A stretch of 64,000 bases of DNA from Nitrospirota bacterium (GCA_035516965.1 DATIZR010000093.1:43255-107254); one strand, 5' to 3'; positions 2,407 to 51,331 are shown, counted from the stretch's first letter. The notes: generated from the letters alone by a model not told the origin. Translations and numbers: made by a program.

Positions 2407-2412
2407 CCAGCC

Positions 2413-13426: not shown

Positions 13427-13448
13427 GTAAGTTTGGTAAAATTGCGCT

Positions 13449-22081: not shown

Positions 22082-22141
22082 CGCAGTTGCACCGTCTTTT
22101 CTGGTTTATAGCCGAAATTTAAGGTCAAACAACGTGCTCGT

Positions 22142-24901: not shown

Positions 24902-24911
24902 GGCATGAGCT

Positions 24912-28538: not shown

Positions 28539-28581
28539 CCTTGGAGGAAGAAGTTCTGGCAAGGTTGATTGTTCACACACT

Positions 28582-33445: not shown

Positions 33446-33475
33446 TGATGTTGGCCTCAAGAGAGGATAGCTGAT

Positions 33476-36346
33476 ATGAGAACAGGAAGAAACGACCCTT
33501 GCCCATGCGGCAGTGGTAAAAAATTCAAAAAATGCTGCGAACCGACGGAAACGTCACCATCCGCGGCAGTCCCAGGCCCGGCTCACTCTTTGGCAGGCAT
33601 GCTCCGGGAAGCCATTGACCATCACCAGACAGGTAGGCTGGGTGATGCAGAAAGGCTCTACCGGTCCATCCTTGAGAAAAGACCGAACGACGCCGACGCA
33701 CTTCATCTCCTCGGCGTGATCTGCCACCAGATCGGCAACCTTGCTGAAGCTGAGACCCTGATCAAAAGAGCGATCGCTGTTGACAACAAGGCCGCGTTAT
33801 TCCATGTGAACCTCGGGAATGTGCTCAAACAACGAGGCAAGCAGGATGAAGCCATGGCCTCGTTCCGCAAGGCTCTCTCGCTTCAGCCTGATCTCGCCGA
33901 AGCGCACTATAACCTGGCAAACGAGCTTTACGCAAACAATGATGTGGAAAAGGCGGTTACCCATTACACAAAGGCTTTGCGGACGAATCCTCAAATGGCA
34001 GAAGCACATTATAACCTCGGCATCGCATTGCAGACGCAGGACAGGATAGAGGAAGCGATATCAAGCTATTCGCGCGCCGTCGCGATCCGGCCCGATCATC
34101 ACAATGCTCACTATAATCTCGGCATTCTCTTCCAGGAGATGGAAAGGTATAAGGATGCCGCAATGCACTATGACCGTGCCTTGAAATACGATCCGGGCAA
34201 TGCGAACGCGCACTATTATCGGGGCAATGCGTATCTGGAGCTCGATCGGTATGACACAGCCGAGGCATCCTTCAGATCTGCAATAGCACTTCGGCCGGAT
34301 TTTGCTGATGCCCACAACGATCTCTCGGTTGCCTTACGAAAACAGGGACGTACGGAAGACGCCCTTGCTTCCGCGCGACGCTCCCTGGAGATCACCCCCG
34401 GCTTTGCGGCCTATAATAATCTGGGCATAACATACCGGGAGGATGGAAGAATTGCAGAAGCTATCGAAAATGCTAAAAGAGCGATCGCACTAAAACCGGA
34501 CTCTCCTGATGTTCAATGGAATCTCGCGCTTGCCCTCCTGCATCATGGTGAACTCGCACCGGGTTGGCAAAGGTACGAATGCCGTGCTTTGAAAACTGAC
34601 TCTAGCCTGAGGGTGTTCCCCTATCCGCGCTGGGCTGGAAGCCCCCTGAAGGACAAGACATTATTTATCTTTGCCGAGCAGGGCATAGGCGATCAGATCA
34701 TGTTCGCATCCCTTTTTCCCGATATCATGCGGCGTGAGCCGAAACACTGCATAGCAGATTGCGACCCGCGGCTGGTGCCGCTCTTTGCCAGATCATTTCC
34801 CGGAGTAGCGGTCATTCCCGCGGCTAGAGAGACCCTGGTGGATAGACTTCCTGCCATTGATCTGGCCATCCCCATGGGCAGCCTTCCGATGCATCTGCGC
34901 CCTGATCTTATAAGCTTTCCGCAGCAACGCTCATTTCTGGTTCCCGATGCCGAAAAGGTCGCACTCTGGAGCAGCCGTTTCAACAGGCTCGGAACGGGGT
35001 TGAAGATTGGAATATCCTGGAGGGGAGGCAAGGATGCCAGCGTCCGCAATCTGCGCTCGACAACGCTTGCGCAGTGGTCCCGTCTTTTCACGGTGCCGGG
35101 TTTACAGTTCGTGAACTTACAATACGGGGACTGCGCTCAAGAGCTTCTGACCGCTAAAAAGGACCTTGGCGTCACGATCCACGATTGGGACGACGCAGAC
35201 CCGCTCAAGGACCTCGACGGCTTCGCGGCACAGATTGCGGCCCTGGACCTTGTGATCTCCGTGGATAACGCCACCGTGCACATGGCCGGAGCGCTTGGTA
35301 TTCCGGCATGGGTATTATTGCCCAGGGGCTGCGACTGGAGATGGATGAAGGACTTTGAAGACAGCCCGTGGTATTCTTCGGTCAGGCTGTTCCGTCAACA
35401 GGCGCACGGAATGTGGGGAGAGGTCTTCGAGCCGGTCGCCGAATCACTGAGAACAATGACTCCCCGGGCGCTGGCCTCAGGGAACAATGACTGTTTTTTA
35501 CCACCGGTCAAGAGGTCCTATCTGTCCGCAACATCATCAGTCGAAACGATGCATTCGAAAACAGCGATCAGCAATCTCAACCTGCGACTTTCTGAGATCA
35601 TGCAGAACAGGATATCGGTAAAAACAGCGGTCGAAGTTAGAGAAATAGATTCACTGTCCGCGACTGAGCAGAGCCTCTTTGACAGGCCTATCTTTATCCT
35701 TGGAGTGCCGCGTTCGGGGACCTCAATGGTTGCAGGCTTATTGCATGAATGCGGTGCATGGGCAGGGAAAACCGTGCTGGGATCACCGGAAAATCCGAAG
35801 GGGTTCTACGAGCATATTGTTCTAAGAGAAACGATGAATAAAAAAATTCTTTCTTCTCTTAACTGCGACCCCTTAGGGGTCAAGGCCCTCCCGGAAATTG
35901 ATCAACTGCCGGATATCCCGGATCTGGGCAATATCGTAAAGCAGGTTATTCAAGCTGAGGGCTACACTGAAGACAGGCCGTGGCTATTTAAAGATCCCAA
36001 GTTGTCCCTTATATGGCCTATATTGAGAGCGGCTTTTCCCTCCGCGCGTTGGATAATCGTGAGAAGAAAGAATGAGGATATTATCAGGTCATGCTTGAAC
36101 ACTCATTTTATGGTCCGTCATTCGACTGATCCGTTGTTCTGGCGCTCCTGGATCGATGAGTACCTCGATAGACTGGATAGGTTGAAAGGATCCGGCGTAT
36201 GGTGGAGAGAAGTATGGCCGCATGAGCTTGCCTCAGGAGACTTCGGCGTCCTGCATCAACTGATCAACGAACTTGATCTGAACTGGAACGAACAAATCGT
36301 CGAGGAATTTATTCTGCCGGGCTCATGGCATGCTTCAACAACATGA
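33476..36346 (+). CDS. SEC-C motif - TPR repeats - GT9-like glycosyltransferase - C-terminal sulfotransferase fusion protein
   Basis: [21 protein letters not shown] units, FAEQGIGDQIMFAS, ISVDNATVHMAGALGIPAWVLL, then PIFILGVPRSGTSMVAGLL P-loop sulfotransferase domain. Confidence 0.65.
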   Translation: MRTGRNDPCPCGSGKKFKKCCEPTETSPSAAVPGPAHSLAGMLREAIDHHQTGRLGDAERLYRSILEKRPNDADALHLLGVICHQIGNLAEAETLIKRAIAVDNKAALFHVNLGNVLKQRGKQDEAMASFRKALSLQPDLAEAHYNLANELYANNDVEKAVTHYTKALRTNPQMAEAHYNLGIALQTQDRIEEAISSYSRAVAIRPDHHNAHYNLGILFQEMERYKDAAMHYDRALKYDPGNANAHYYRGNAYLELDRYDTAEASFRSAIALRPDFADAHNDLSVALRKQGRTEDALASARRSLEITPGFAAYNNLGITYREDGRIAEAIENAKRAIALKPDSPDVQWNLALALLHHGELAPGWQRYECRALKTDSSLRVFPYPRWAGSPLKDKTLFIFAEQGIGDQIMFASLFPDIMRREPKHCIADCDPRLVPLFARSFPGVAVIPAARETLVDRLPAIDLAIPMGSLPMHLRPDLISFPQQRSFLVPDAEKVALWSSRFNRLGTGLKIGISWRGGKDASVRNLRSTTLAQWSRLFTVPGLQFVNLQYGDCAQELLTAKKDLGVTIHDWDDADPLKDLDGFAAQIAALDLVISVDNATVHMAGALGIPAWVLLPRGCDWRWMKDFEDSPWYSSVRLFRQQAHGMWGEVFEPVAESLRTMTPRALASGNNDCFLPPVKRSYLSATSSVETMHSKTAISNLNLRLSEIMQNRISVKTAVEVREIDSLSATEQSLFDRPIFILGVPRSGTSMVAGLLHECGAWAGKTVLGSPENPKGFYEHIVLRETMNKKILSSLNCDPLGVKALPEIDQLPDIPDLGNIVKQVIQAEGYTEDRPWLFKDPKLSLIWPILRAAFPSARWIIVRRKNEDIIRSCLNTHFMVRHSTDPLFWRSWIDEYLDRLDRLKGSGVWWREVWPHELASGDFGVLHQLINELDLNWNEQIVEEFILPGSWHASTT

Positions 36347-36398: not shown

Positions 36399-36782
36399 TC
36401 AGATAGCAGCGGGTGAGCCTCTGAGACCAGCCGCAATATTGATGTTGATGTTGATAATGGCCGCAAGCTTTTCCGGAACGGGCTGCGCCATGACCTCGAG
36501 AATGCGTTTGTCGATGAAGAGACTGAGCGACAGGATGTCCTCCCGGATCTTTCTGGGCATCGCGTTGTCCGAACCGGCAAGCTCGCTCTGGAATATGCTC
36601 CAGATTCGCTGGTTATACCGGAGCGCCTCGTCGAGACGTGCATCCCGGTCGGTTGCATCCCAGTTATTCTGCACATTCTGCAGCATGAGGGCGGCTTTCG
36701 TCAATACCGACGCCTCCAGCTCACGACCTGACTGAGTTGTCTTTTGGACCGTCCGGTATGCTTCCAGTTGATTTGCGAGCAT
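36399..36782 (-). CDS. flaF: flagellar biosynthesis regulator FlaF
   Basis: LEAYRTVQKTTQSGRELEASVLTKAALML...RYNQRIWSIF matches the FlaF family pattern known from Caulobacter-type flagellin regulation. Overlaps flbT by 62 nt. Confidence 0.6.
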   Translation of the reverse strand: MLANQLEAYRTVQKTTQSGRELEASVLTKAALMLQNVQNNWDATDRDARLDEALRYNQRIWSIFQSELAGSDNAMPRKIREDILSLSLFIDKRILEVMAQPVPEKLAAIINININIAAGLRGSPAAI

Positions 36783-37161
36783 TGTTCAAGACCTCCTGTT
36801 CATATTCTATCAGTTTCTGCGTCAGCTTCAGCGCCTGGTAGTAACGGCTGCTCAGGATGTTTGCGCTGATCTGGTCTATCATGCCCAGCGTGCTGGGCGC
36901 CGCGGTCACAACATCCCGCACGAGCTTCCAGTAGCTGTTGTGGTGCACAACAAGGTTTTTCTCGTCCACATACATGAGCTGGACGGTGAAGTAGATGCGC
37001 TTGCAGGGCGTGTCCGCGTCCTGTTCGCGGAGAATGTCCTTGTCCCTCAGTATCGGAACATTGTTCTCGACCATCAGGTCGCACCGGCTTCCGCCGTTCT
37101 GGACGACCGCTCCGCCGATGATCAGACGTTCATGGGGTTTTAAATTGATTTTCAGGGCCAT
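36721..37161 (-). CDS. flbT: flagellar biosynthesis repressor FlbT
   Basis: MALKINLKPHERLIIGGAVVQNGGSRCDLMVENNVPILRDKDIL...ADTPCKRIYFTVQLMYVD is closely similar to the FlbT family N-terminus (MALKxxLKPGERIxxGxxVIxNG...VPILRxKDIM...ADTPxKRIYxxVQLMYID). Confidence 0.75.
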   Translation of the reverse strand: MALKINLKPHERLIIGGAVVQNGGSRCDLMVENNVPILRDKDILREQDADTPCKRIYFTVQLMYVDEKNLVVHHNSYWKLVRDVVTAAPSTLGMIDQISANILSSRYYQALKLTQKLIEYEQEVLNNARKSTGSIPDGPKDNSVRS

Positions 37162-37198
37162 AGCCTTCCGAATCCGTCAAACCGAAAATATATCAGCT

Positions 37199-37681
37199 TT
37201 ATATTTTTACATTCACGATAGTTCCATGCTGCACGTGGTCCGCTGTCTGCGCTCGCTTCGGACTGATCGTTTCCTTATATTGCTTGAGGTCCGCGAGGGC
37301 GGCCGAAACTTCCCTGTCCGTGGACTTATCCGTCAGTTTGTTCGCCGTCAGTTTTTCTTTTAATTCAGGTGGGAGGGAAGACTTCCCTATCTCTTCCTGA
37401 ACTCCCTTGATCCCCTTGATCAGATCGAGTCTCTGAGGACTTCCCAGAGGGAAGAACGGTGGAAAACTGAACATGATCGTTTTCAGCTGATCTTTAATGT
37501 AGTTGGTATTCGTCAAACTGGTCATTACCTGCGGCTCACGGATACCGGAGCTGCCTGTTGCTGATGAATTGAAGGTCTCCGATGATCTGGTCTGTGTTGA
37601 AACAGGTGAATTGCCCTTTCTCGCAGACAGTTGAGAACCATCCGCCTGGCTTGCCAGCATGTTAATGCCATTGATATCCAT
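37199..37681 (-). CDS. hypothetical protein (flagellin-locus associated, possibly FlaG-like)
   Basis: 160-aa ORF with low-complexity polar N-terminus and a conserved-looking C-terminal half. Sits between flagellin and flbT on the same strand. No confident family assignment. Confidence 0.4.
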   Translation of the reverse strand: MDINGINMLASQADGSQLSARKGNSPVSTQTRSSETFNSSATGSSGIREPQVMTSLTNTNYIKDQLKTIMFSFPPFFPLGSPQRLDLIKGIKGVQEEIGKSSLPPELKEKLTANKLTDKSTDREVSAALADLKQYKETISPKRAQTADHVQHGTIVNVKI

Positions 37682-37699
37682 AATTGCGCCTCCGGAGTT

Positions 37700-37732
37700 T
37701 AGAAGAAGACGGGAGGCGAATCACCTCCCGTC
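37700..37732 (-). terminator. intrinsic terminator downstream of flagellin gene
   Basis: Perfect 9-bp GC-rich inverted repeat gacgggagg / cctcccgtc (37708-37716 / 37724-37732) with 7-nt loop. On the minus strand the stem is followed by TTCTTCT. Confidence 0.55.
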
Positions 37733-37751
37733 TCGGTCCCAGATCCGTAAA

Positions 37752-38582
37752 CTAGGCAAACAGCCTCAGTACTGATTGCGCTGCCTGCGAAGAGAGGCTC
37801 AGTGCCGTTGTGCCCAGAGACTGCCTGGTCTGCAGCATCAGCATGTTCGCACCTTCTTCGTTCATGTCAGCGAGCGTCAAGCTGTCAGAGCCCGCGGTGA
37901 GGGTATTCACCATTTGGGTCGTGAAGTCCTGGCGTGCCTGAATGATGCTGAGACCGGCCGAAAGTGCACCAGAGGTCGTTCTCAGCGTGGTCTTCGCCGT
38001 ATTGAGCGCGGTTATGGTAGTATTGATGTCCGAAACACTCGAAGAGCTGGTTATGCCCACCGTACCGGTGTCGATCCCGAGGTCAGCCGATTTTGATGCA
38101 ATGGATTTAACGGTGAGCGATGAGGTATTGTCCTCGTTAAAGTTCACGACGAGATCGCTCGAACCATTCAGCAGGTTTACGCCCTGATAATTGGCGTCGG
38201 TGACAACCGTATCCAGCTGGGCCATGAGGGTCGAATACTGCATCCCGATGACCGACAGTGCCGTAGTATCCGTCGTGGAAAGTGCTTGCTGGGCAAGACC
38301 TTTGGCAGCATCGATAAGCGTGCTGATCGTCGTGATACCGTTGTTTGCGACCTGGATCGCCTGGATACCCTGGCCCATGCCGTCCTTCAGAGCGGACAGG
38401 TCCGCTGCGCGGCCGTTCAGGGCCTGTGCTGCAAAGAATGAAACGGGGTTATCCAGCGCGCTGTTGACCTTCTTGCCCGAGGACAAACGTTCCTGTGTCC
38501 TGTTGAGAAGATCGACGGTGCTCTGAAGGCTGACGAGGTTGCTGCGCATTCCTGAGGTTAAGGTGATGTCATTGATAGCCAT
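37752..38582 (-). CDS. fliC: flagellin (short, 276 aa, Caulobacter-type)
   Basis: Flagellin N-domain (RLSSGKKVNSALDNPVSFFAAQ...IQVANNGITT) and C-domain (ANMLMLQTRQSLGTTALSLSSQAAQSVLRLF). AAGGAGA RBS. Perfect sigma28 promoter upstream. Confidence 0.8.
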   Translation of the reverse strand: MAINDITLTSGMRSNLVSLQSTVDLLNRTQERLSSGKKVNSALDNPVSFFAAQALNGRAADLSALKDGMGQGIQAIQVANNGITTISTLIDAAKGLAQQALSTTDTTALSVIGMQYSTLMAQLDTVVTDANYQGVNLLNGSSDLVVNFNEDNTSSLTVKSIASKSADLGIDTGTVGITSSSSVSDINTTITALNTAKTTLRTTSGALSAGLSIIQARQDFTTQMVNTLTAGSDSLTLADMNEEGANMLMLQTRQSLGTTALSLSSQAAQSVLRLFA

Positions 38583-38779: not shown

Positions 38780-38904
38780 ACGAAAAGCGCGTGGATCGCG
38801 GCTGTCCTGCTTCCGACTCCCGGGAAAAACGCCTAAAGTTTTCCGCGAATCGTCCGATATGAGGACCAAAGGCATGGCCGGCCGCGGTGCCGGCGGAGGC
38901 GCAG

Positions 38905-39102
38905 ATGACCGTCTTTCCGTTTCAGTTAACCGAGGTGATGCACCTCTACAACAGGGTCTCCAAGCTCAAACCGTCAACGATCCTCGACAAAGAGCCCGGC
39001 GAACCGAAGGATGTCGTGAACATATCAGCCGAAGGGAAGAAGCGGCAGATCCTCGACCAGGCCCGGAACGAGGTGCTGGACCAGATCCGGAAGACGAAAT
39101 AA
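38905..39102 (+). CDS. small hypothetical protein (65 aa) divergent from flagellin gene
   Basis: ATG at 38905 preceded by GGAGG. No confident homology (weak resemblance to FlgM-like anti-sigma factors). ORF track starts at 38887. Confidence 0.35.
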   Translation: MTVFPFQLTEVMHLYNRVSKLKPSTILDKEPGEPKDVVNISAEGKKRQILDQARNEVLDQIRKTK

Positions 39103-39121
39103 TAACGGCGGACCATGAGAC

Positions 39122-39724
39122 TTGGATAAAAAAGCGTTTCGCATACTCGTTGCCGATGATGACGACATCGCCCTCGACGTCGTGAGCATGCTCCTCTCCC
39201 GGGAGGGCTACTCGGTCGCTCCCGTCAAGGACGGCCTGGAGGCCATCGACCGGCTCCGGCTTGAGGAGTTCCACCTGGTCATTACCGACCTGATGATGCC
39301 CGGGGCCGGCGGCATCGAAGTCCTGAAATATGCCTCCCGGAGCAATGCCGATATCGCCGTAGTCATCCTGACGGCCTACGGCACCCTCGATACCACGCTC
39401 GAGGCAATCAAGGAAGGGGCCTATGATTACCTCACCAAGCCCTTCCGGACCCAGGAGATCTCCATCATTGCCGAGCGCGCGTACCAGCGGGCCCTGCTCA
39501 TCGCAGACAACCGGGACCTGAAGCGGAGCCTGCGCGACACCTACCGTGATATGGAGATCATCAAGACGGTCGCCGCGAGCGGAAATCCCGAGGTGACCAC
39601 GGCCTGGCTCGAACGGATCGAGAGGCTCAGGACCATGAACGTGCTGCTCGCCGGCGAAGCCGAGGTGCTGAAGGAAAGGCTGGTCAGGGGAAATGGAAAA
39701 GGGCAGAATATTAATAGTGGATGA
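39122..39724 (+). CDS. CheY-like response regulator (stand-alone REC with C-terminal helical extension), TTG start
   Basis: ILVADDDDIALDVV...LVITDLMMPGAGG...LTAYGT...KPF receiver motifs. Confidence 0.75.
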   Translation: MDKKAFRILVADDDDIALDVVSMLLSREGYSVAPVKDGLEAIDRLRLEEFHLVITDLMMPGAGGIEVLKYASRSNADIAVVILTAYGTLDTTLEAIKEGAYDYLTKPFRTQEISIIAERAYQRALLIADNRDLKRSLRDTYRDMEIIKTVAASGNPEVTTAWLERIERLRTMNVLLAGEAEVLKERLVRGNGKGQNINSG

Positions 39725-41177
39725 TGATCCCCTCGTCCGGGACGTCCTGTCAGACATCTTCGAGCAGGCGGGGTCCTATGTGACCGAAAGCGCCCCGAAC
39801 GGGACGGAAGGCATACAGAAGGTCAAGGATCATGATTATGATGTAGTGTTCACCGATCTCACCATGCCGGGCATCACCGGCATTGACTTCATGCGTGAGG
39901 CCGTGAAGCTGCGCCCGGCCCTGCCCGTCGTCGTCATCACCGGCCATTCGACCATGGACAACGCGGTCAACGCCATGCGTGAGGGCGCAAAGGACTTCCT
40001 GAGCAAGCCGTTCACCATGGCGTCCGTCACGTCCGTCGCCGAGCGGCTGATCGGGGAGCGGCGCCTCCTGGCAAAGCTCGCGCCGGACGGCGGATATGAG
40101 ACCTGCATCGGCAGGCTGAACGCCGAGCTTTTCAAGAAACTTCAGGAAATAACCATCCTCCAGTCCATCAGCTCCGAACTCGACGCGATCTACGACAACA
40201 GGGAGGTCTACGAAAAGATCGTCGAGATGGCGTCGCGGCTGCTGCGCGTCAAGGAGGTCGCCTTCGGCATCGTCGAGGACGGGGTGTTCAGGGTCCGGTG
40301 CGCCGCCGGCGTTCCGGAGCGGGATTTCCCGGTGGCTGGCGGCATCTTTGAGCGTGTCGTTCGGACCCGTGAGCACTGCCTGTTCGGCATGGGCGACCGG
40401 AACCCGCACACGGGGAACCTGCTCGAATCCCCGCTCTTCGCGATCCCCTTCACCATCAATGGCGAGGTCTTCGGCATCGTCAGCCTCATGAACAAGGCCG
40501 ACGGCAGCGCCTTCACCGAGGACGAGGTCTCCCTCGCCCTGACCTTCGCGAAGAAAGCGGCCCAACGCATAGAGAACAATGCCCTGTACGAGGTGTTCTA
40601 CAATAATCTGATCAGTACGCTCAAGGCGCTCGTCATCAGCATCGAAGCGCGGGACTCCTACACCAAGCAGCATTCGGAGCGCGTGACGAACTACTCGCTC
40701 CAGGTCGCCGAAGCGATGGAACTCGGCGCCGAGGAGAAAGACGCGCTGCGGTTCGGGGGGTACTTGCACGACATCGGCAAGATCGGTGTTCGGGACACGA
40801 TCCTCCTCAAGCCGGAGAAGCTCACGGACGAGGAGAAGACGGAGATCAACCTCCACCCGGTGATCGGCGCGAACATCATCGAACCCCTGCGGTTCTTTCC
40901 GAAGGAGCGGGAGCTCATCATGCACCACCATGAGAACTTCGACGGGTCCGGATACCCCGATGGTCTTGCCGGGGAGCGGATCCCGATCGCGGCGCGCATC
41001 CTGGCCGTCGCCGACGCCTACGATGCCATGACGTCGTCGAGGCCCTACCGCGCGGCAAAAAGCAGGGCCTTCGCCGTCGAGGAGCTCAGGCGCTGCTCCA
41101 ACAGCCAGTTCGACGGTGAGGTCGTCCGCGTATTCCTGCAGACGCTGGGGGAAGGAGATCCGAGCCATGCCCATTGA
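39693..41177 (+). CDS. REC-GAF-HD-GYP response regulator (c-di-GMP phosphodiesterase)
   Basis: REC (ILIVDDDPLVRD...VFTDLTMPGITG), GAF region, HD-GYP (YLHDIGKIGV, HHHENFDGSGYPDGL). Confidence 0.85.
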   Translation: MEKGRILIVDDDPLVRDVLSDIFEQAGSYVTESAPNGTEGIQKVKDHDYDVVFTDLTMPGITGIDFMREAVKLRPALPVVVITGHSTMDNAVNAMREGAKDFLSKPFTMASVTSVAERLIGERRLLAKLAPDGGYETCIGRLNAELFKKLQEITILQSISSELDAIYDNREVYEKIVEMASRLLRVKEVAFGIVEDGVFRVRCAAGVPERDFPVAGGIFERVVRTREHCLFGMGDRNPHTGNLLESPLFAIPFTINGEVFGIVSLMNKADGSAFTEDEVSLALTFAKKAAQRIENNALYEVFYNNLISTLKALVISIEARDSYTKQHSERVTNYSLQVAEAMELGAEEKDALRFGGYLHDIGKIGVRDTILLKPEKLTDEEKTEINLHPVIGANIIEPLRFFPKERELIMHHHENFDGSGYPDGLAGERIPIAARILAVADAYDAMTSSRPYRAAKSRAFAVEELRRCSNSQFDGEVVRVFLQTLGEGDPSHAH

Positions 41178-41928
41178 GGCCGGCGTGCGGGTCGTCTTCC
41201 GCCTCATTGCGGAGTCGACGCTGCACCATGCGACGGTTGTCGCCATCGACGACAACGCGATAGTGCTCGAACCGGAATACAGCATTTCCGCCGACATCCC
41301 CCCCGGCCAGTATCTGCTCATCACGGGACCCGACACGGACATCGAGTATTACGGCGAGGTCATCGGCGGCGAAGGCTCGGCGCTGCGCCTCCGGCGCATG
41401 TGGACCGGCGAGCGAGGTTATTTCCGCGTCGATGATGTGTTCCCGTTCACGTGGCGGAAGATCCCGGAGGGCGAGCCGTACCGCGAGTCCTGCATCTTCT
41501 CAGGATACGGAATGGATGCGGCCGACCTGGAGCTCCCCGACGACAGCGCCAGCCCCCGGCTCTGGAAAATGCTGCTGGACATCAACGCGAAGCTCGACGT
41601 GGTCATCAGGCATCTGCATCTGGAGAGCGAAGGGCTCATCCGCGCCCGGGGCGTGCCGGTCAACCTCAGCGCGTCCGGTCTCCGCTTCAGGCTGGACAGC
41701 AGGCCGTCGATCGGCGACGATCTCGAGGTAAAAATACTGCTGCCGTCCTATCCGCCCGTCGGGGTGCTCGTGATCGGCCGGGTGGTCAGGATCGACGAAC
41801 ACGCGGCGGCCGGTTTCGACATTTCGCTCCATTTCATCGACCTGACCGATGAGGTGCGGGAAGTGATCATCCAGTATACGCTCAAGCGCCAGCGGGAGAT
41901 CCTCAGCCGCCAGCGCCGGCGGGAGTAG
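41167..41928 (+). CDS. PilZ domain protein (YcgR-like c-di-GMP receptor / flagellar brake candidate)
   Basis: PilZ motifs RLRRMWTGERGYFRV (RxxxR) and NLSASGLRF (D/NxSxxG). Located between the HD-GYP gene and motA. ATG at 41167 with GGAGA RBS. Confidence 0.65.
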   Translation: MPIEAGVRVVFRLIAESTLHHATVVAIDDNAIVLEPEYSISADIPPGQYLLITGPDTDIEYYGEVIGGEGSALRLRRMWTGERGYFRVDDVFPFTWRKIPEGEPYRESCIFSGYGMDAADLELPDDSASPRLWKMLLDINAKLDVVIRHLHLESEGLIRARGVPVNLSASGLRFRLDSRPSIGDDLEVKILLPSYPPVGVLVIGRVVRIDEHAAAGFDISLHFIDLTDEVREVIIQYTLKRQREILSRQRRRE

Positions 41929-41935
41929 GGGTGTC

Positions 41936-42706
41936 ATGGACCGGGCAAGCATCATAGGACTGTTGGTCGGCCTGACCGCGCTGTTCGGAGGAAACCTCCT
42001 GGAGGGCGGCAGGGTCGACTCGATCCTCCAGCCCACCGCCGCGCTCGTGGTCTTCGGCGGCACGCTGGGTGCCACGCTCCTGAGCTTCCCTGCGCGGGAT
42101 GTCTATAGTGCCGTGGCCGCTCTCCGGACCGTGTTCCGCGAGGACGGGTCGGAGGCCGAGGCCCTGATCCACGACATCATCCGGTTCTCCCATATCGCCC
42201 GCCGGAACGGCTTCGTAGCGCTGGAGCCCGAGGTTCCCCGGCATGCCAACGCCTGCCTCCGGAAAGCGCTCAAGCTGGCGATCGACGGCATGCTCCCGAA
42301 ACTCCTGACGGATACCATGGAGCGGGACAACGCGACCTACGAGGACCGGGAACGGCGCATTGCCAAGGTGTTCGAAACGGCCGGCGGCTTCGCCCCCACC
42401 ATCGGCATCATCGGCGCGGTCCTGGGGCTGATCCGCGTCATGGAGAACCTTTCCGATCCTGCGAAGCTCGGCGCCGGCATCGCCGTGGCCTTCGTCGCCA
42501 CGATCTACGGCGTCGCCTCGGCAAACCTTGTTCTCCTGCCCATCGCCCGCAAGCTCATGAACCGTGCAAACCGGGAGCTTGCGCTCCGCGAGATGATCCT
42601 GGACGGGGTGATCGGGATCCAGGCGGGCGTCAACCCGCACTATCTCGAGGAAAAGCTGAGGGCCTTCGTGGAACGTGATGGACATGCGAAAAAGCAGGAA
42701 GCATGA
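41936..42706 (+). CDS. motA: flagellar motor stator protein MotA (set 1)
   Basis: 4-TM MotA/TolQ/ExbB topology. Conserved C-terminal TM3-TM4 region (PTIGIIGAVLGLIRVM...AFVATIYGVASANLVLLPIA). Confidence 0.85.
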   Translation: MDRASIIGLLVGLTALFGGNLLEGGRVDSILQPTAALVVFGGTLGATLLSFPARDVYSAVAALRTVFREDGSEAEALIHDIIRFSHIARRNGFVALEPEVPRHANACLRKALKLAIDGMLPKLLTDTMERDNATYEDRERRIAKVFETAGGFAPTIGIIGAVLGLIRVMENLSDPAKLGAGIAVAFVATIYGVASANLVLLPIARKLMNRANRELALREMILDGVIGIQAGVNPHYLEEKLRAFVERDGHAKKQEA

Positions 42707-42836
42707 GGAGCGAAGGATGCGATAAGCCGCCGGTTTCCGGGTCGGGCACAGAATGACGGGTCGGGGTACAAGTCGTACGAACCATGACGTGGTGCATATT
42801 CTCAACGGTAACGCTTGAGAACCGCGGATACACGCT

Positions 42837-43526
42837 ATGCGAAGAAAGCGCAAAACCGAAGACCATGACAATCCCGACCGTTGGGTCGTGTCCTACGCCG
42901 ACTTCATCACGCTCCTGTTCGCCTTCTTCACGACGCTCTACGCGATCAGCCACGTCGATCTGGGCAAGCTGGAGCGGTTCACCGGCTCCATGCAGTCCGC
43001 GTTCAAGACGAAACAGCGCAACGCGATCGACACGACGGTGATCGATGGCATCAGGCCGCCGGTCTACGCCGATGTGCGGCTCGAAAAAGAGTTACGGGAG
43101 GAGATCGGGAAATCTGGTATAATAGAGGGCGTTGTCGTCAGCCGTGACGACCGCGGCGTCATCGTCTCGTTCGAGGACGCGCTGCTCTTCGAGAGCAACG
43201 AGGCGGCGCTCAAAAAATCGGCGCGGCCGATCATCGCGATCGTTGCCGCGGCCGTCAGGAAGGCGGGCCGGACGGTCGTCATCGAGGGGCATACGGACAA
43301 CCTGCCGCTCCGGAACAGCCGTTACTCGTCGAACATGGAGCTGTCGGCCGCCCGCTCCGCAAGCACCTTCGCCGCCCTGCTGAGCGAAGACCCCGGCGCA
43401 CAGGACCGGATTTCCACGGCGGGGTACGGCGAATACCGGCCAATCGCCTCAAACGCGACCTTCGAGGGCCGGGCGCGCAACAGGAGGATAGATATCATCT
43501 TTGTCTCCCGGAAGGACGGAACATAA
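42837..43526 (+). CDS. motB: flagellar motor protein MotB (set 1), OmpA-like C-terminus
   Basis: WVVSYADFITLLFAFF plug/TM with conserved Asp. OmpA-like peptidoglycan-binding domain (IEGHTDNLP...LSAARSAS...RNRRIDI). Confidence 0.85.
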   Translation: MRRKRKTEDHDNPDRWVVSYADFITLLFAFFTTLYAISHVDLGKLERFTGSMQSAFKTKQRNAIDTTVIDGIRPPVYADVRLEKELREEIGKSGIIEGVVVSRDDRGVIVSFEDALLFESNEAALKKSARPIIAIVAAAVRKAGRTVVIEGHTDNLPLRNSRYSSNMELSAARSASTFAALLSEDPGAQDRISTAGYGEYRPIASNATFEGRARNRRIDIIFVSRKDGT

Positions 43527-45006
43527 GATCCTCGTTGTCGAGGACCGGCCCGAACAGAGGTCCCGCATCAGCGCGGCCTTTGCCCTGCACGGGAAGGGCC
43601 TGGCACTGCAGTTCTCGCCGTCGCGGGCCGCGGCAGTGGAAGCCGTGAACCGGGAGAACATCGATGTCCTCTTCTTCGGCGGTGACGGGGCCGTGCCTGA
43701 TTTTGTGAGGAGCGTCCTCGCGGACGGCCAGCGGAACACGGTCCTCATCATGATAACCGGCACGGATGATGAAGCGGCAAGGCTGGCGGCGATCCAGTCC
43801 GGCGTGGATGACTGCGTGCCCGCCGGCGCTGAGGGCATCGCCGGCTTCCCGGATGCCGCCCGGCGCGCCCTCGCGCGACGCGACGGGGAGCGGCGGCGCG
43901 CGGAGGAGCTGGACCTCGTAATCCGGAGCCAGGTCCAGTGGATGGCGATCCTCGATGCCATCACCGATTATATATTCGTCATCGACGACCAGCAGCGGCT
44001 GCTCAAGGTGAACAGCGCCTTCGCGGCGGTTCTTCAGATGCACCCCCGCGACGTGGTGGGGAAAAAGTGCTCTGATTTCTTCGGCACCGAGATCCTGAGC
44101 GAGTGCTCGACAAAGGACCTCGAGCACGACGGTAAACCGCGTACCTATGAAAAGGCCATCGGCGAAGAGACGTACCAGATCAGTATCTTCCCCCTCCAGG
44201 AGGCGGATCGCAGCCTGTCGATCCAGGTCATGAAGAACATCACCGAGCTCAGACGGCTCAAGGACCAGCTGCACCACGCGGACAAGCTTGCCTCCATTGG
44301 CCTGCTCGTTTCCGGCGTCGCTCATGAGATCAACAACCCCTTGACCGGCACCATCGCCTACACCGAGCTGCTCACGATGAAGGTGCCCGACGAGAGCATC
44401 AAGCGGGACCTGAACAAGATCCTCGAGAGCGCGGAGCGGTGCAAGAAGATCGTCGACAACCTCCTCACCTTCTCGCGCCAGCGAACACCGGCGAAGAGCC
44501 TCGAATCCGTCAACGACATCGTTGACCGGGCAATCGAACTGCGGGGTTACTGGCTCCGTTCGAGCGGCATCGAGGTCGTAAAGGACTACGACGCCCTTAC
44601 CACGGTTTTCGTCGATGCGCAGCAGCTGCAGCAGGTCATCCTGAACATCCTGCTCAATGCGGAGCAGGCAATCGTCGGGGCCGGCCGGAACAGGGGCAGG
44701 ATCACGTTCACTACGCGGTACCAGCGGGCGGACCGCAGGATTTTCATCCGCATCGCCGACAACGGGCCGGGGATCCCGCAGCGCATCATCTCCCGGATCT
44801 TCGATCCCTTTTTCACGACCAAACCCGTCGGCGTGGGGACCGGTCTGGGGCTGTCCATATCCCACGGCATCGTGAGCGAGCACGGAGGGACCATCCGTGC
44901 CGAAAATCTTGAAGAAGGAGGCGCCGCGTTCATCATCGAGCTCCCGACGGGGGCAGGTACGCTCCAGGAGGGATCGGAGCAGAGACGAAGCGGTCCGCAC
45001 AAATAA
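43501..45006 (+). CDS. sensor histidine kinase with N-terminal REC-like domain and PAS domain
   Basis: ILVVEDRPEQR REC-like. PAS (ILDAITDYIFVID). H-box GVAHEINNPLTG. HATPase (LLNAEQA, DNGPGIP, GTGLGLS). Confidence 0.8.
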   Translation: MSPGRTEHKILVVEDRPEQRSRISAAFALHGKGLALQFSPSRAAAVEAVNRENIDVLFFGGDGAVPDFVRSVLADGQRNTVLIMITGTDDEAARLAAIQSGVDDCVPAGAEGIAGFPDAARRALARRDGERRRAEELDLVIRSQVQWMAILDAITDYIFVIDDQQRLLKVNSAFAAVLQMHPRDVVGKKCSDFFGTEILSECSTKDLEHDGKPRTYEKAIGEETYQISIFPLQEADRSLSIQVMKNITELRRLKDQLHHADKLASIGLLVSGVAHEINNPLTGTIAYTELLTMKVPDESIKRDLNKILESAERCKKIVDNLLTFSRQRTPAKSLESVNDIVDRAIELRGYWLRSSGIEVVKDYDALTTVFVDAQQLQQVILNILLNAEQAIVGAGRNRGRITFTTRYQRADRRIFIRIADNGPGIPQRIISRIFDPFFTTKPVGVGTGLGLSISHGIVSEHGGTIRAENLEEGGAAFIIELPTGAGTLQEGSEQRRSGPHK

Positions 45007-45009
45007 GCC

Positions 45010-45867
45010 ATGTTCGTCATTGTCGGAATAGGTATCGTGCTCGGGGCGGTCATCGGTGGCTTTCTCATGGAAGGGGGAAACCTGCACATTCTCTTCCAGC
45101 CCTCCGAGGTCGTCATCATTTTTGGCGCCGCCCTGGGCGGTTTTCTGATTTCCTCTCCGTCCAAGATCGTCGGCATCGTCTCGAAGAACGTCCTGACCAT
45201 CGTCGGCGGGAAGAGCCACTCCAAGCGGCAGTACCTCGAACTCCTGTCGCTCCTGTACCAGCTCTTCTCGAAGATCCGGAAGGAAGGGCTGGTCTCCGTC
45301 GAGTCAGACATCGAGAACCCCGACCGGAGCCCCATCTTCCAGAAATTCGGCAGCGTGCTGTCCAACCACCACGTGGTGAACTTCATCTGCGACAACCTGA
45401 AGGTGATCGTCACGGCAAACGTGCCTCCCCATGAGCTGGACAACCTCATGGAGATCGAGATCGACACCCATCACCATGAGGCAATGATCCCCTCGCACAG
45501 CGTCGCGCGCGTCGCCGACGCCCTGCCCGGCCTCGGCATCGTGGCGGCGGTCCTCGGCGTGGTGCTCACCATGGGCAAGATCGACCAGCCGCCGTCCGTG
45601 CTCGGCCACAGCATCGGCGCGGCGCTCGTCGGCACGTTCCTCGGCGTGCTCATGTGCTACGGGTTCGTCGGCCCCATTGCCGCCAATCTGGAGCACCAGG
45701 CCCAGGAGAAGGGCTTTTTCCTGCAGGTCATCAAGGTCGCCCTCGTGGCGTTCGTCGGCGGCTCCGCACCCCAGATGGCGGTGGAATTCGGCAGACGGGC
45801 GATCCCGGATGTTGAAAAGCCGACCTTCAGCGAGCTGGAAAACCAGGTCAGGGGCAAGGCAAAATGA
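45010..45867 (+). CDS. MotA/PomA-family stator protein (set 2)
   Basis: 4 TM helices, LPGLGIVAAVLGVVLTMG...GAALVGTFLGVLMCYGFVGP conserved MotA C-terminal channel region. Confidence 0.8.
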   Translation: MFVIVGIGIVLGAVIGGFLMEGGNLHILFQPSEVVIIFGAALGGFLISSPSKIVGIVSKNVLTIVGGKSHSKRQYLELLSLLYQLFSKIRKEGLVSVESDIENPDRSPIFQKFGSVLSNHHVVNFICDNLKVIVTANVPPHELDNLMEIEIDTHHHEAMIPSHSVARVADALPGLGIVAAVLGVVLTMGKIDQPPSVLGHSIGAALVGTFLGVLMCYGFVGPIAANLEHQAQEKGFFLQVIKVALVAFVGGSAPQMAVEFGRRAIPDVEKPTFSELENQVRGKAK

Positions 45868-46658
45868 GCGACCAGAAGTCCAAGATCATCATTAAAAAGG
45901 TGAAGAAGGTATCCGGCGGAGGAGGACACGGCGGGAGCTGGAAGGTTGCCTATGCCGACTTTGTGACGGCCATGATGGCCTTTTTCCTGCTCCTGTGGCT
46001 GATCACCATGGTCGCGCCCGAGAAGCGCGCGCGCATGTCGAACTACTTCAAGAGCTTCAGCATCTTCCAGCACAGCGGCACGTCGTTCATGGAGAAATCA
46101 AGCGAGCTGTTCAATCAGGCCGGCGAATCGCAGGACAAGCTCTCGGCCGACGCCCTGGCCAAGTTCCAGACCCGCAGCAAGGAGGAGGTCAAGGAGTCGA
46201 TCAAGAAGGCCATTGAGGTCAAGCTGGGGGATATCAAGGACCAGATCATGGTCGATGTGTTCGAGGGGGGGGTGCGGATCCAGCTGGTGGACAAGGCGGG
46301 CAAACCCATGTTCGACCTCGGCTCGCCCGAACCCACGCCGCTCGCCACCCGGATCATGCAGGTGCTGGGCGACCAGATCAAGGCCATGCCGAACCCGGTC
46401 TCCGTGGAGGGCCACACCGATTCCCTGGCCTTCCGGTCGTCAGCGACGCGCGGCAACTGGGAGCTTTCCACCGAACGGGCGCTCTCGGCAAAGAAGCAGC
46501 TCGAAGGCTACGGCCTGAACCCCAACCGCCTGACCCGGGTCGCCGGCTACGCCGATACGGTCCCTTTCATCCAGGAAGACCCCGAGGACCCGCGGAACCG
46601 CAGGATCAGCATCATTCTCCTCTTTCCCCAGGCCCCGCCCGCCATCTCTTCCCGATAG
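45864..46658 (+). CDS. MotB/PomB-family stator protein (set 2), OmpA-like
   Basis: WKVAYADFVTAMMAFFLLLW TM with Asp. OmpA-like (VEGHTDSL...LSTERALS...RNRRISI). 4-nt overlap with upstream motA-like gene. Confidence 0.8.
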   Translation: MSDQKSKIIIKKVKKVSGGGGHGGSWKVAYADFVTAMMAFFLLLWLITMVAPEKRARMSNYFKSFSIFQHSGTSFMEKSSELFNQAGESQDKLSADALAKFQTRSKEEVKESIKKAIEVKLGDIKDQIMVDVFEGGVRIQLVDKAGKPMFDLGSPEPTPLATRIMQVLGDQIKAMPNPVSVEGHTDSLAFRSSATRGNWELSTERALSAKKQLEGYGLNPNRLTRVAGYADTVPFIQEDPEDPRNRRISIILLFPQAPPAISSR

Positions 46659-46663: not shown

Positions 46664-49600
46664 TCAGCCTGCCTGCTCCCCCGGACTCCGATCCAACGCA
46701 CCCCGGACCTTCTTCAGAAGTTCGGACGGAGCAATGGGTTTCAGGATCATCTCGGCACCGTCTCCGAGGAGCCCCTTTTGCTTGATGACATCGGCCGGGT
46801 AGCCGCTCATGAACAGAATCCTGGTACCTGGCACCGTCTTCCTGACCGCGTTCATCACCTCGCCGCCGTTCATGCGCGGCATGATCGCGTCGCACAGAAC
46901 GAGCCGGATGCTGTCCCTGTTCTCCAGGAACCGCTCCAGGGCGTCTTTGCCGTCGACGGCCGTGATCACCGTGTAGCCGAATTCCGAGAGCGTCGCTTTC
47001 ACGAGCGCCCTCATGGCCTCATCGTCTTCCGCAACAAGAATGGTTTCAGTCCCCCGCAGATGATCGCCCGCCAGGGGTCGGGCTGCCTTCTCCACGCGGG
47101 CCTCGTCCGCTCTATCCAGGAGCGGCAGGTAGATCTTGAACGTCGTGCCCATTCTCGGCTCGCTGTAGCAATGGATGAACCCGCCATGCTGCTTAATGAT
47201 GCCATAGACCATCGAAAGGCCGAGCCCGGTGCCCCGCCCGAGGTCCTTCGTGGTGAAGAAGGGCTCGAAGATCTTTTCCCTGGTCTTCTCGTCCATGCCG
47301 GCGCCGGTGTCGGCGACAGAGAGTACGACGTATTTCGAATCCTTGCCGTTCCTTGCCTCTTCGCCGAGGGCATCGGATTCAACAACGGCCGTTTCCAGGG
47401 ACAAGAGACCCCCCTGTTGCATGGCATCGCGGGCATTCGTTGCCAGGTTCATCAGGACCTGCTCGATCTGGCCGGAGTCGGCATTCACGATGACCGGGCC
47501 GGGTGCCAGCGCGGTCCGGAGGTCGATGTCTTCGCCGATGATCCTCTGGAGCAGTTTTTCGACGCGCCTGATGTTCTCATTGATATCGATCGGTGCCAGG
47601 CTGGTTATCTGTTTTCTGCTGAAGGTCAGCAGGCTCCGGGTGAGGCTTGCGGCCCGGTCGGTTCCGGAGAGTATCTGGTCGACAAAAGGCCTGCCAGGGT
47701 CGTTCTCATGCATTCTCATGAGGAGCAATGAAGCATAGCCCACGATCGCGGACAGGATGTTGTTGAAGTCATGGGCGATGCCGCCCGTGAGCTGGCCGAC
47801 GGCCTCCATTTTCTGCGCCTGGCGGAGCTGGCTTTCGAGCTTCTTTTTCTCGGAGATGTCGAGGAGCGCCCCGATGATCGCCGGTTTGCCAAAATAAAAT
47901 GCTCGGGAGCCATACGTTTCGATATGGACGATTTCGCCCGTTGCCTTTTGCCCCCTGAATTCATAATTGGTGAACTGCTTCTCGCCGGAGATCCTTTTTT
48001 CAATGTTCTCCGTGACGATATGCCAGTCTTCGGGTACAACGAGATCCCGGGGTCTCTTATGCTCGATGATATCGTCAACACTGAAACCGAACATCTCCCC
48101 AAGCCGCGGGTTCACATACTTGAATGCATCGTCCTGTATGATGTACGTGCCTACCAGCGACTGCTCGGCCAGACTTCTGAATTTATTCTCCGATTCCTTG
48201 AGCTGTTCCTCGAAGAGCTTGTGCTCCGTAACGTCCGTCATGATATGAACGCCGCCGACAAGCCTGCCGGACTGGTCGATGATCGGATCGGCTGTGACGC
48301 TGAACCAGCGTCTGAGCATCTGCTGGACCGAGGTCTCCCTGCGGCGGGATCGCAGCATCTTCCGGAAAGGGCAGTCGTCGATACGTTCATCTGCGCCATG
48401 GATCACTTCCCAGCAGGGATGGCTGACGATCTCCTGCGGGTACCTGTCCAAGAGCTCGATCATTTCCTTGTTGCACCGCTGGATCGTTCCGTTCTGGTCT
48501 ATGATGCTGACCGCGTCATGGATGGCGTCAAAGGTGTTGTTCCACATCTGAACGGACGACCGGAGTTCCGCCTCCATCCGCTTTCGGGCTGTAATGTCCG
48601 CAAACATCCCCAGAAGGCACTCTTCGCCCGCAAGCTCGATCCGCTCTGCCGATATGAGCAGGTCTCCGGTTTCACCTGTCTTTCGGCGGAATTTCGCTTC
48701 AAGATTCTGGACGCGCCCCAGCTCGCGCAGCGTTTTCGCCATAGCTGCCCGGTCTTCGACATTGACCCATTGCTGAAGCTCGACCGATGTATGGCCGATG
48801 ACCTCCTGACGGTCAAACCCATAGACGCTCAGGAAAGCGTCATTCGCATCGTAGATCGTGCCGTCGGAAAGCCGGGAGATCACGATGCCGATCGGGCTGC
48901 TGTGAAAAACCGTCGAGAAACGCGACTCGCTCTCCCGCAGCGCATCCTCGGTGCGGAATTTCGCCAAAGCCACGGCAAGCTGGTCCGCCAGCCTCTCCCA
49001 GGCACTGATCGTCTCCCGGGAGAAAGCCCCTGTCCGTCGGTCGTTCAACTGCAGAAGCCCCAATCGCTGATCACCGAGGCGCAGGGGAAGCAGTGCCACC
49101 GACTCGTATCCCTCGCCGTTGCACCGGTTGCGCGTGCGCGCCTGCCGGTCCGCTTCGGTGGTGCTGCGCAGGAGCTCCGTTGTGTTGTTGCTCCAGAAGC
49201 TCCCGTGCTCCGTGAAGAACGGTTTTGAGGGGTTGAATCGCCCGCAGATCACCTTGCCGCACATGCATTCGAGAATGGGATTGCCTTCTTTGTCCCGGAT
49301 CATGCAGTCTGCACTGTCCCGTGCGCAGAGTCTGCTCTCCGCAAGGACGAATTCCTCGGGGAATCCCCGGGCCTCGAAGTAAGGATAGTCCTCACCTTCA
49401 CGCAGCCGGATGCCGACCGCCTCGCACCCGGATTGCTGCTGGAAAAAGGTCGTGGCCGCCCTGATCAGGTCCTGCGTCCCTGTGCTTTCATTCACCAGGC
49501 GAAGGAAATCAATCGTTCTCTCGCGCTCCTGCTCCGCCCGTTTGCGCCCGGTGATCACGTCGAAGACGGCCACGAAATGTTCCGGCTGGGGGCAATACAC

Positions 49601-51331
49601 GGAGATGGAGAACCACATCTGAAGTGCCGCGACGAACATTTCGAAGCGTTCGGGCGTTCCGGTCAGTGCGACCCTTCCATAGATCTCGAAGAGCTTCGGG
49701 TCGGCTTCGCGTATGCCCGGGATCACCTCCGTGACCTTTTTCCCGACGACGCTTGTCAACCCCGTTAAGCTTTCGAACGTCTTATTGACATCGAGATAAA
49801 TGAAGTCGGTCGGCTCTCCGTTCGCGAAGACCATTCTGCAGTGAGCGAATCCCTCGACCATGTTCTCGAACAATGACCTAAACCGTTTTTCGCTCTTGCT
49901 GAGGGCGTTCTCCGCCCGCTTGAATTCGGTGATGTCTTCAACCGCCTCAATAGCGGCCGAAACGGACCCGTCGGGCGCAAGAACCGGCGCGGAAATTACT
50001 TTGTAGTAGCGAATTCCTTCAGGAGTCGGCGTTTCGGTAATCGAGGCATGAATCTTCCCGTCCTGGAGAGAACGCACGGTGGGACAGTAAGAACAGACGA
50101 CTTTCCCGGGGGGAACATTGAAGCTTTTGTAGCAAATGGGCCGTTGGCCGTCATCCACATGGGGAAACCACTTTTTCATGACGGGATTCATGGAAACGAT
50201 CTCCATCTGTGGATTTATGAGGGCAATGCCGATGCCGATATTGACAAAGATCGAGGAGAACATTTCCTCGCTGGCACGCAATTTCTCTTCCGCGCTCCTG
50301 CGCTCGGTGATGTTGTCGAAAACGGCAACAAAATGTTCTTTCTCGGGACTGTAGACGGATGTCGTGAACCATTTTCCCAGCGCGTCAACGTATATCTCGA
50401 ACCGCTCAGGCCTGCCGGTCAATGCCACCCTTCCATAGACCTCGAACAAGTCGGGATGGGCCTCTCTAATTCCGGGGATGACCTCGCTGACCTTTTTTCC
50501 AACCACGTTCCTCAAACCCGTCAACCGCTCGAATGAGGGGTTGACATCGAGATAGACGAAATCCTGTGGCCGGCCCTCGTCATACAGCATGCGGCAGTAG
50601 GAGAAACCATCGAGCATGTTCTCGAACAGCGAGTGGTAGCTTCTTTCGCTCCCCTGCAGTTCGGCGGTCCGCTCGTCTACCAGTTCCTCCAGGTGATGAT
50701 GATGTCGCCTTAATTCGGCTTCCGCCTTCCTGCTCTCGGTGACATCGCGGATGATCGCCTGGGATATTTTCTTGCCGCCGTAATCAATGATCGTTATCGT
50801 GCCTGTTATCTCAACGGGAACTTTCGCGGCGTCCTTTCTCAATATATGGACATCGCTTATCACCACGCCGCCCCTCGCAACGGCTTCTGCGAACGAGCGG
50901 AGCGCTTTTTCGGCTTCATCTGCAGGATGGAGCCTCGAGATTTCCATGGCGATCAGCTCGTTCTTCGTGTAACCGGACAGTTCTTCCGCCCTGCGGTTGA
51001 CCTCGACAATTCTCCCGTCAAGGTCGGTCAGCAGTATTGCCTCTCCGGCATCTTTCATCAAGGCGCGGTATTTCTGCTCCGAATCCTGGAGCAGCCTGTC
51101 CGTGAGCCTGACCATGGATAAGAGGAGCGGAGCCACGAGCGAAGGGACAACGAATGCATCGATGGTGCCTATTTTGAGGAGGTCGTAGGAAACGCTTCCC
51201 CACCACAGCAACCCAAGAAAGGCGTTCATAAGCGCCGTAAAGATTTCCGAGGCAATGACGGCGATCAGGAGCAGCAGCCACATGTTTGTGGTCTTGATCT
51301 TCTGGAATATAAAGTGGGTAATGCTTCTCAT
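46664..51331 (-). CDS. very large (1555 aa) membrane-anchored multi-PAS/GAF hybrid histidine kinase with C-terminal REC
   Basis: Two N-terminal TM helices, at least 6 PAS/PAC units, a GAF domain, HisKA ([15 protein letters not shown]), HATPase (NARDAM, DTGAGM, GTGLGLS), REC ([11 protein letters not shown]...VLCDAIMP). Confidence 0.85.
49480..50650. repeat. internal tandem duplication of a PAS-domain coding unit inside the giant kinase gene (two units about 400 bp each, about 750 bp apart, about 70-85% identical)
   Basis: Protein segments ...[77 protein letters not shown]... and ...[77 protein letters not shown].... DNA near 50401-50460 versus 49651-49702 is near-identical. Confidence 0.7.

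Follow-up and report, generated by a model that had tools for sequence, protein, structure and literature searches.

What a cyclic di-GMP (c-di-GMP) receptor does when its gene stands directly in front of flagellar stator genes is the question raised by a locus in a metagenome-assembled genome (MAG) of a Nitrospirota bacterium. The stretch of DNA analysed here, 64,000 nucleotides (nt) long (GCA_035516965.1 DATIZR010000093.1:43255-107254), is referred to below as the window. Within a flagellar region, its positions 38905-46658 hold nine closely packed open reading frames on the + strand, encoding a small protein, a stand-alone response regulator (REC), a REC-GAF-HD-GYP protein, a PilZ receptor, MotA1 and MotB1, a PAS histidine kinase, and MotA2 and MotB2. 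This list had been given by an earlier sequence-only reading and stands as it was, each named domain being confirmed by Pfam and NCBIfam.

The PilZ receptor gene and its stator partners

In the window, the PilZ gene is separated from motA1 by 7 nt. Scanning one genome per species yielded 79 related loci, nearly all from Nitrospirota/Thermodesulfovibrionia, 77 of them with enough downstream sequence. A PilZ homologue is followed by a motA-type gene within 350 nt in 74 of these 77; this gene is of the MotA1 type in some lineages and of the MotA2 type in others. The full nine-gene form is the commonest arrangement, and a kinase-less form (Thermodesulfovibrio yellowstonii-like), a REC-PilZ-MotA2B2 form, and a PilZ-MotA1B1 form without the second stator set also occur. 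As for magnetotactic Nitrospirota, only PilZ-MotA2B2 remains, with the order fliC-flaG-fliD-fliS-PilZ-motA-motB in Ca. Magnetobacterium casense. The receptor gene stays with a stator pair regardless of stator type or loss of the other genes. In Ca. Magnetobacterium casense (locus L066, 12568-14088), a gene for an FHA-domain Ser/Thr protein kinase comes directly after motB.

The receptor most likely starts at ATG 41167, which has a Shine-Dalgarno sequence (AAGGAG) upstream, and not at GTG 41116; the protein is identical to one on record from a Nitrospirota MAG. The Pfam PilZ model covers only residues 160-239. Its homologues were aligned in a set of 24, then extended to 111. The layout consists of an N-terminal PilZN-like barrel at about residues 1-82 (8-82 in the structural model) and a tPilZ-type PilZ domain at 83-253. 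Both c-di-GMP motifs are kept, namely R83xxxR87 (R83 in 108 of 111 sequences, R87 in all 111) and N166-L-S-A-S-G171 (family N-h-S-x-x-G; N166 in 107, S168 and G171 in all 111). The PilZ domain thus carries the motifs for c-di-GMP binding, and binding itself is predicted. Between the first two PilZ strands lies an insert of ~60 amino acids (aa): 78 residues separate R87 from N166, versus ~22 in MotI of Bacillus subtilis. In the AlphaFold (AF2) model, which is of medium confidence (predicted local distance difference test score, pLDDT, 76.8; below 50 in the insert loop 113-123), the N-terminal barrel and the PilZ barrel are accompanied by a single long helix in the insert (130-154) and by a C-terminal helix (228-252), which is basic in the receptor family (LKRQREIIRKQR).

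The long helix carries N140-A-K-L-D144, in agreement with the interlocking motif of tPilZ, [DENH]x[KR]h[DEN], represented by DAKLD in XCC6012 (10.1101/814665). Across the family, 104-111 of 111 sequences keep the first four motif positions, with K142 and L143 nearly invariant, and 35 have D, E or N at the fifth. Hydrophobic residues are heptad-spaced along the helix (132, 136, 139, 143, 146, and 150). Where tPilZ has two helices in its insert, however, only one long helix is predicted here, and the Pfam tPilZ model PF16823 matched no member of the family, whether long or short, even with E allowed to rise to 10. According to Foldseek, the best structural match to the receptor model is B. subtilis MotI (E 4e-9), followed by PlzD, YcgR, PP4397, and MrkH; the tetrameric PilZ protein XCC6012 is also significant. 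When PDB sequences were searched with the family profile, MotI was the sole match (E 1.5e-4), with both motifs in register.

A family-profile search of 1.84 billion representatives retrieved 3233 relatives, many of them stand-alone proteins of 175-195 aa that cover profile positions 77-250 only; a metagenome scan with a narrower alignment mostly returned the long Nitrospirota family again. The short relatives share the receptor motifs, with an invariant Lys in IN.KLD, and their profile matches XCC6012 at E 0.033, with INaKLD aligned on DAKLD. Because of the fold and profile likeness to MotI, the interlocking motif, and the match of the short relatives to XCC6012, the receptor is described as a PilZN-like barrel apparently fused to a tPilZ-type PilZ domain bearing c-di-GMP motifs. 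By structural and profile comparison, the MotI/YcgR group and the tPilZ group are equally good relatives. tPilZ domains occur in Nitrospirae but are almost never fused to other domains (Galperin and Chou, 10.1101/814665); they are classed as stand-alone single domains, whereas in the window protein ~80 aa at the N-terminus form an additional domain. In a near-identical metagenome contig (L130), positions 1-5018 correspond to window positions 40870-45900; HD-GYP, MotA1, MotB1, histidine kinase, and MotA2 are 97-100% identical there and PilZ only 92%, which suggests faster divergence of the receptor gene than of the genes around it.

Short stand-alone relatives (185-192 aa) also stand directly upstream of motA-motB in four loci of other lineages. 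Two of these (L080 and L137) are in non-flagellar neighbourhoods; the other two (L139 and L140) are inside che/flagellar clusters of the order cheY-cheX-cheB-flgK-[PilZ]-motA-motB-fliC-cheD. In two further short-form lineages (L083 and L138), the next gene encodes an ABC-F ATPase instead. The latter pair would suit an explanation in which PilZ acts elsewhere, for instance on the rotor/switch (FliG/FliM) or on a target outside the motor, and its place before motA reflects shared late expression; YcgR, too, is reported to contact rotor and stator alike (PMC12713396). The adjacency, however, persists when the stator type is exchanged and when all other operon genes are lost, and in the non-flagellar neighbourhoods the short forms stand beside motAB alone, which makes this explanation quite improbable. 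HDOD genes were also noted near three of the short-form PilZ-motAB loci (L137, L139, and L140).

Two stator sets and their ion coupling

According to Pfam, both A subunits carry MotA_N and MotA_ExbB, and both B subunits carry MotB_plug and an OmpA-like domain. Regarding NCBIfam, MotA1 passes the cut-off of PRK09109 (290.9 bits vs 237) and MotA2 that of the MotA equivalog TIGR03818 (391.6 bits vs 303.8), whereas the B subunits stay below the cut-offs of their best families, MotD PRK09038 for MotB1 (201 bits vs 283) and MotB PRK09041 for MotB2 (232.7 bits vs 277). The best PDB match of MotA1 is 9lu9/9luc, annotated as 'Flagellar motor protein MotA' (also 9lub; E 3e-65); in the alignment it shares 44% identity with the MotA chain of 9luc, which we take to be Pseudomonas aeruginosa MotC. 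The two sets are 25% (MotA pair) and 27% (MotB pair) identical to each other, in agreement with the 25-30% estimated by eye in the sequence-only reading.

The channel Asp is invariant in both B subunits (D22 of MotB1 in 51 orthologues, D32 of MotB2 in 54). MotA1, MotA2, PomA, and the 9luc chain all share the rotor-facing residues R89 and E97 (MotA1 numbering), as well as P154 and P202. The same reading had named grouping of one set with ExbBD/TolQR-like systems as the result that would speak against it. Such a grouping was not found: the TolQ model matches MotA1 only marginally (E 0.0025), and a PADLOC test for Zorya-type relatives gave no ZorA match and only generic ZorB matches, weaker than MotB/MotD. 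As judged from these sequence comparisons, both sets are genuine flagellar stators, set 1 being MotC/MotD-like and set 2 E. coli-type MotAB, and MotA1 is assigned to the MotC/PomA/MotP-like branch.

As for ion type, every Na+ stator keeps the residues T158, T185, and T186 of PomA, and H+ stators have Ala in place of the first two (PMC10374538). In an alignment with a PomA sequence identical to PDB 8bri, the corresponding positions are A161/A188/T189 (A-A-T) in MotA1, likewise in 50 of 52 orthologues, and A180/G208/T209 (A-G-T) in MotA2, likewise in 58 of 58. Because the Thr triad is replaced in both cases, both sets are predicted under this rule to have an H+-type pore and to be proton-driven. 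The sequence-only reading had considered different ion coupling for the two sets, as in Shewanella PomAB/MotAB or Bacillus MotPS/MotAB, with one set driven by Na+ and the other by H+. Set 1 does belong to the branch that also contains PomA and MotP (NCBIfam MotP 197 bits, PomA 171 bits, both under cut-off), but with the Na+ triad absent from MotA1 and MotA2 alike this idea is not supported, and a Na+/H+ division is regarded as very unlikely. A division by load or condition, of the MotAB/MotCD kind, would suit the pair better. At the position of PomA T158, the closest solved MotA (PDB 9lu9/9lub/9luc) carries Thr and MotA1 carries Ala; within this stator branch, the Thr/Ala rule may hold less strictly.

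Signalling genes and possible modes of receptor action

The best solved relative of the HD-GYP protein is the GAF-HD-GYP protein 4mcw (PmGH; E 6e-35), and alignment to it shows that the motifs LHDIGK, HHHE, GSGYPDG, HHHENFDGSGYPDG, and DAYDA are intact. The protein is thus predicted to be a c-di-GMP phosphodiesterase, and the retention of all HD-GYP catalytic motifs supports its earlier description as a c-di-GMP-degrading response regulator. Both receivers, that of this protein and the stand-alone REC, have the acceptor Asp, Thr, and Lys. The stand-alone REC had been called CheY-like, which is not strictly right: its best NCBIfam family is AtoC, its receiver is of the NtrC/AtoC type, and it has a conserved C-terminal extension of 80 aa (residues 120-200, 39480-39724; LRDTYRD...ERIE.L...LKERL, kept in 52 orthologues). 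Because REC remains beside PilZ in the minimal REC-PilZ-MotA2B2 form, it may act directly on the receptor or the motor.

The kinase scores best with the NCBIfam family AtoS (248 bits); besides the Pfam domains PAS, HisKA, and HATPase_c, it has at the N-terminus an extra degenerate receiver-like domain (24 bits vs cut-off 30.2) without the conserved Lys and with a doubtful phospho-acceptor Asp. An AtoS-like kinase together with AtoC/NtrC-like receivers fits a cognate pair but proves nothing. The small protein, whose gene has GGAGG 5 nt upstream of its ATG, matches NCBIfam NF041863 (DVU0524 FlgM-associated family) at E 6e-4, with 20 bits vs a cut-off of 40, and its pattern PFQ..E..LY.R..KLKP...EP.D.V.ISAEAKK is kept in 35 loci.

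In the mechanism proposed here, the PAS kinase would phosphorylate the REC-GAF-HD-GYP enzyme and the stand-alone REC, and the phosphorylated enzyme, once active, would lower c-di-GMP. The c-di-GMP-loaded PilZ protein, probably an oligomer formed via the tPilZ-type helix, would bind the cytoplasmic face of MotA and thereby alter torque generation or the choice of the stator set that engages the rotor. Such ligand-dependent action of PilZ on the stators, tuned by the kinase-controlled HD-GYP enzyme, is considered rather probable from the sequence evidence. As for its direction, inhibition of the brake or clutch kind would be most likely by analogy with YcgR, MotI, and FlgZ. The sequence-only reading had gone further and proposed direct braking of the motor; its link between PilZ and the stators is strengthened by the 74 of 77 loci and by the likeness to MotI, while braking is only one possibility.

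Several points weigh against this mechanism. All functional statements rest on homology and synteny, for the receptor family throughout. The likeness of the N-terminal domain to PilZN is structural only and comes from a model of medium confidence; the Pfam families of YcgR-type N-domains were not matched, barring a weak PilZNR match in 1 of 24 members. There is no diguanylate cyclase gene in the operon, and the nearest GGDEF gene is 33 kb away. Both HD-GYP and the kinase are missing from several lineages that retain PilZ-motAB, and PilZ function thus does not require the full circuit. Finally, the only tPilZ protein with a characterised motor link, FlgX, is a positive structural factor and no brake: it does not bind ligand and sits beneath the stators as a stabiliser of their ring (PMC11725899).

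The receptor could accordingly have a FlgX-like role, in which a stable PilZ tetramer formed via the tPilZ helix would be a constitutive scaffold under each stator and needed for motility; c-di-GMP would at most loosen or tighten stator association, and the receptor would be a positive factor. The tPilZ hallmarks of the receptor (the ~60-aa insert, NAKLD, the heptad helix, and the basic C-terminal helix) argue for it, as do the alignment of the short-family INaKLD with DAKLD of XCC6012 (E 0.033), the FlgX precedent itself (PMC11725899), and the presence of the gene beside motAB in nearly every lineage, as expected of a structural partner. The operon, however, has its own predicted c-di-GMP phosphodiesterase, PF16823 remains unmatched, and the tetramer is only putative for this receptor. 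The FlgX-like role is thus judged unlikely, though less so than action away from the stators, and ligand-dependent action on the stators is preferred.

Regarding known systems, MotI/DgrA (YpfA) of B. subtilis, which acts on MotA, is the closest solved relative by both sequence and fold (identity ~15-21%); its PilZ domain is without the insert of the window receptor and, to our knowledge, its gene is not adjacent to motAB. YcgR of E. coli and Salmonella, which belongs to the sigma-28 regulon, and FlgZ/PP4397 of Pseudomonas are c-di-GMP-dependent motor effectors of PilZN-PilZ architecture. The target of FlgZ is MotC, and its host has MotAB and MotCD stators, the same two classes as in the window operon. 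Unlike these effectors, the window receptor has a tPilZ-type helix, and its gene lies within a stator operon together with a phosphodiesterase and a kinase. Among tPilZ proteins (XCC6012 of Xanthomonas, FlgX of Campylobacter jejuni), the window receptor stands apart by keeping both binding motifs and by its N-terminal barrel.

As for the other components, P. aeruginosa MotAB/MotCD likewise comprises one E. coli-type and one MotC/D-type set, both proton-type; MotAB and MotCD are at separate loci in Pseudomonas, whereas the window operon holds both stator sets and the c-di-GMP module together. The HD-GYP enzyme shares the GAF-HD-GYP core and the HD, HHHE, and GYP motifs with PmGH (4mcw), and RpfG has a receiver domain in front of HD-GYP. 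Unlike enzymes of the PmGH/RpfG type, the one described here sits in a stator operon, and its activity is predicted from the motifs. The precedent for adjacency of PilZ and stator genes is MotL of Shewanella putrefaciens, which is encoded immediately beside motAB and regulates that motor (PMC8203827). MotL, however, is a lone canonical PilZ domain of 144 aa encoded downstream of motB in a lateral flagellar system, while the window PilZ gene is upstream of motA.

PilZ control of motors, dual stators, and a PilZ gene beside motAB (MotL, PMC8203827) are thus already known, c-di-GMP/PilZ motor control and dual stators having been studied mostly in Proteobacteria and Bacillus. A literature search found no paper on a stator/c-di-GMP operon in Nitrospirota. 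New are, first, the predicted hard-wiring of receptor, phosphodiesterase, kinase, and two proton-type stators in one operon conserved across a whole Nitrospirota class, of which magnetotactic members retain just the PilZ-motAB core; second, a putative receptor architecture that joins the MotI/YcgR and tPilZ groups, so far treated separately; and third, the recurrent placement before motAB of genes that appear to be tPilZ-type and bear c-di-GMP motifs. The operon offers a testable system for the role of c-di-GMP-binding tPilZ proteins and for how a cell picks between two proton-driven stators.

A broader and more doubtful proposal places both the Nitrospirota receptor and the short stand-alone proteins related to it among the tPilZ proteins that bind c-di-GMP, with the stator unit as their native partner. 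In that case, binding to stators would be both old and widespread as a tPilZ function, Campylobacterota FlgX would be a derivative with ligand binding lost, and unexplained c-di-GMP-binding tPilZ proteins elsewhere would become candidate regulators of stator assembly or choice. In the window, the oligomeric receptor would then set which proton stator engages the rotor according to the c-di-GMP level.

Promoter, gene layout and neighbourhood

The positions of the operon components and of the divergent flagellin-side genes are collected in Table 1. The interval begins with the ATG of the small gene (38905) and ends with the stop codon of motB2 (46658). Neighbouring genes meet in overlaps or gaps of 3-19 nt, the sole exception being the spacer between motA1 and motB1.

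Table 1. Features of the stator operon and of the adjoining flagellin side, in window coordinates
Feature	Position	Strand	Evidence or remark
flaF, flbT, flaG-like gene, flagellin gene, divergent	36399..38582	-	Pfam FlaF 3.5e-33, FlbT 9e-44, Flagellin_N 2.8e-16
sigma-28 (FliA)-type promoter, TAAAGTTT-N11-TCCGATAT	38834..38860	+	~45 nt upstream of small gene start
Small conserved protein, 65 aa	38905..39102	+	NCBIfam NF041863; conservation in 35 loci
Stand-alone response regulator, REC + 80-aa C-terminal extension	39122..39724	+	Response_reg 1.2e-26
REC-GAF-HD-GYP	39693..41177	+	Pfam Response_reg 5e-30, GAF_3 1e-7, HD_5 5e-38
PilZ receptor	41167..41928	+	PF07238, 1.4e-9
MotA1	41936..42706	+	MotA_N + MotA_ExbB; PRK09109
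motA1-motB1 spacer, 130 nt	42707..42836	+	
MotB1 (MotD-like)	42837..43526	+	MotB_plug + OmpA
Soluble histidine kinase	43501..45006	+	Pfam PAS, HisKA, HATPase_c; degenerate receiver-like N-terminus
MotA2 (E. coli-type MotA)	45010..45867	+	TIGR03818
MotB2 (E. coli-type MotB)	45864..46658	+	MotB_plug + OmpA

The promoter boxes match the TAAAGTTT-N11-GCCGATAA-type sigma-28 pattern at 15 of 16 positions. In about 36 of 46 loci, TAAAGTTT-N10-12-(G/T)CCGATAA is found 60-125 nt upstream of the orthologous small gene, with unrelated spacers, and sigma-28 boxes also precede REC in the short REC-PilZ-MotAB operon variant. As for the magnetotactic loci, no sigma-28 boxes were found immediately upstream of PilZ, which there follows fliS in a longer flagellar row. 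Inside the operon, the frequency of sigma-70-like promoters and intrinsic terminators does not exceed that in shuffled sequences. Given the sigma-28-type promoter, the flagellar neighbours, and the chance level of internal promoter- and terminator-like sites, the nine-gene unit is best read as a putative late (sigma-28-dependent) flagellar operon of Thermodesulfovibrionia-type Nitrospirota.

An Rfam scan of the whole window revealed no riboswitch or other RNA family, the motA1-motB1 spacer included; the latter folds no better than its shuffled versions (z-score 0.56). It measures 55 nt in contig L130, and the corresponding spacer of most orthologous loci has 15-30 nt.

The divergent arrangement on the flagellin side also occurs in most related loci. 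Downstream of the operon are fliI, fliH, fliG, and fliF, plus a sigma-54 response regulator and a kinase. On the - strand, a multi-PAS hybrid histidine kinase of 1555 aa (46664-51331) converges on motB2, with 5 nt between the stop codons; relatives of it are found at the matching position in some loci (e.g., 71% identity in L053). Farther off, at 4213-5983, the gene for an HDOD protein precedes one for a GGDEF-domain protein; the latter covers only positions 6-94 of the 161 in the profile and is possibly a diguanylate cyclase, perhaps a degenerate one. The stretch 12001-14000 has low GC content (0.36 vs 0.5-0.65 elsewhere), encodes an amine-oxidase-like protein and the start of a hybrid PAS kinase, and may be foreign DNA. 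Beside the flagellin locus, 17707-36346 holds genes for an APS kinase, several sulfotransferase domains, GT2 glycosyltransferases, a pyruvyl transferase, and SEC-C/TPR giants; this gene run resembles an island for flagellin glycan modification, with sulfation and pyruvylation as possible roles.

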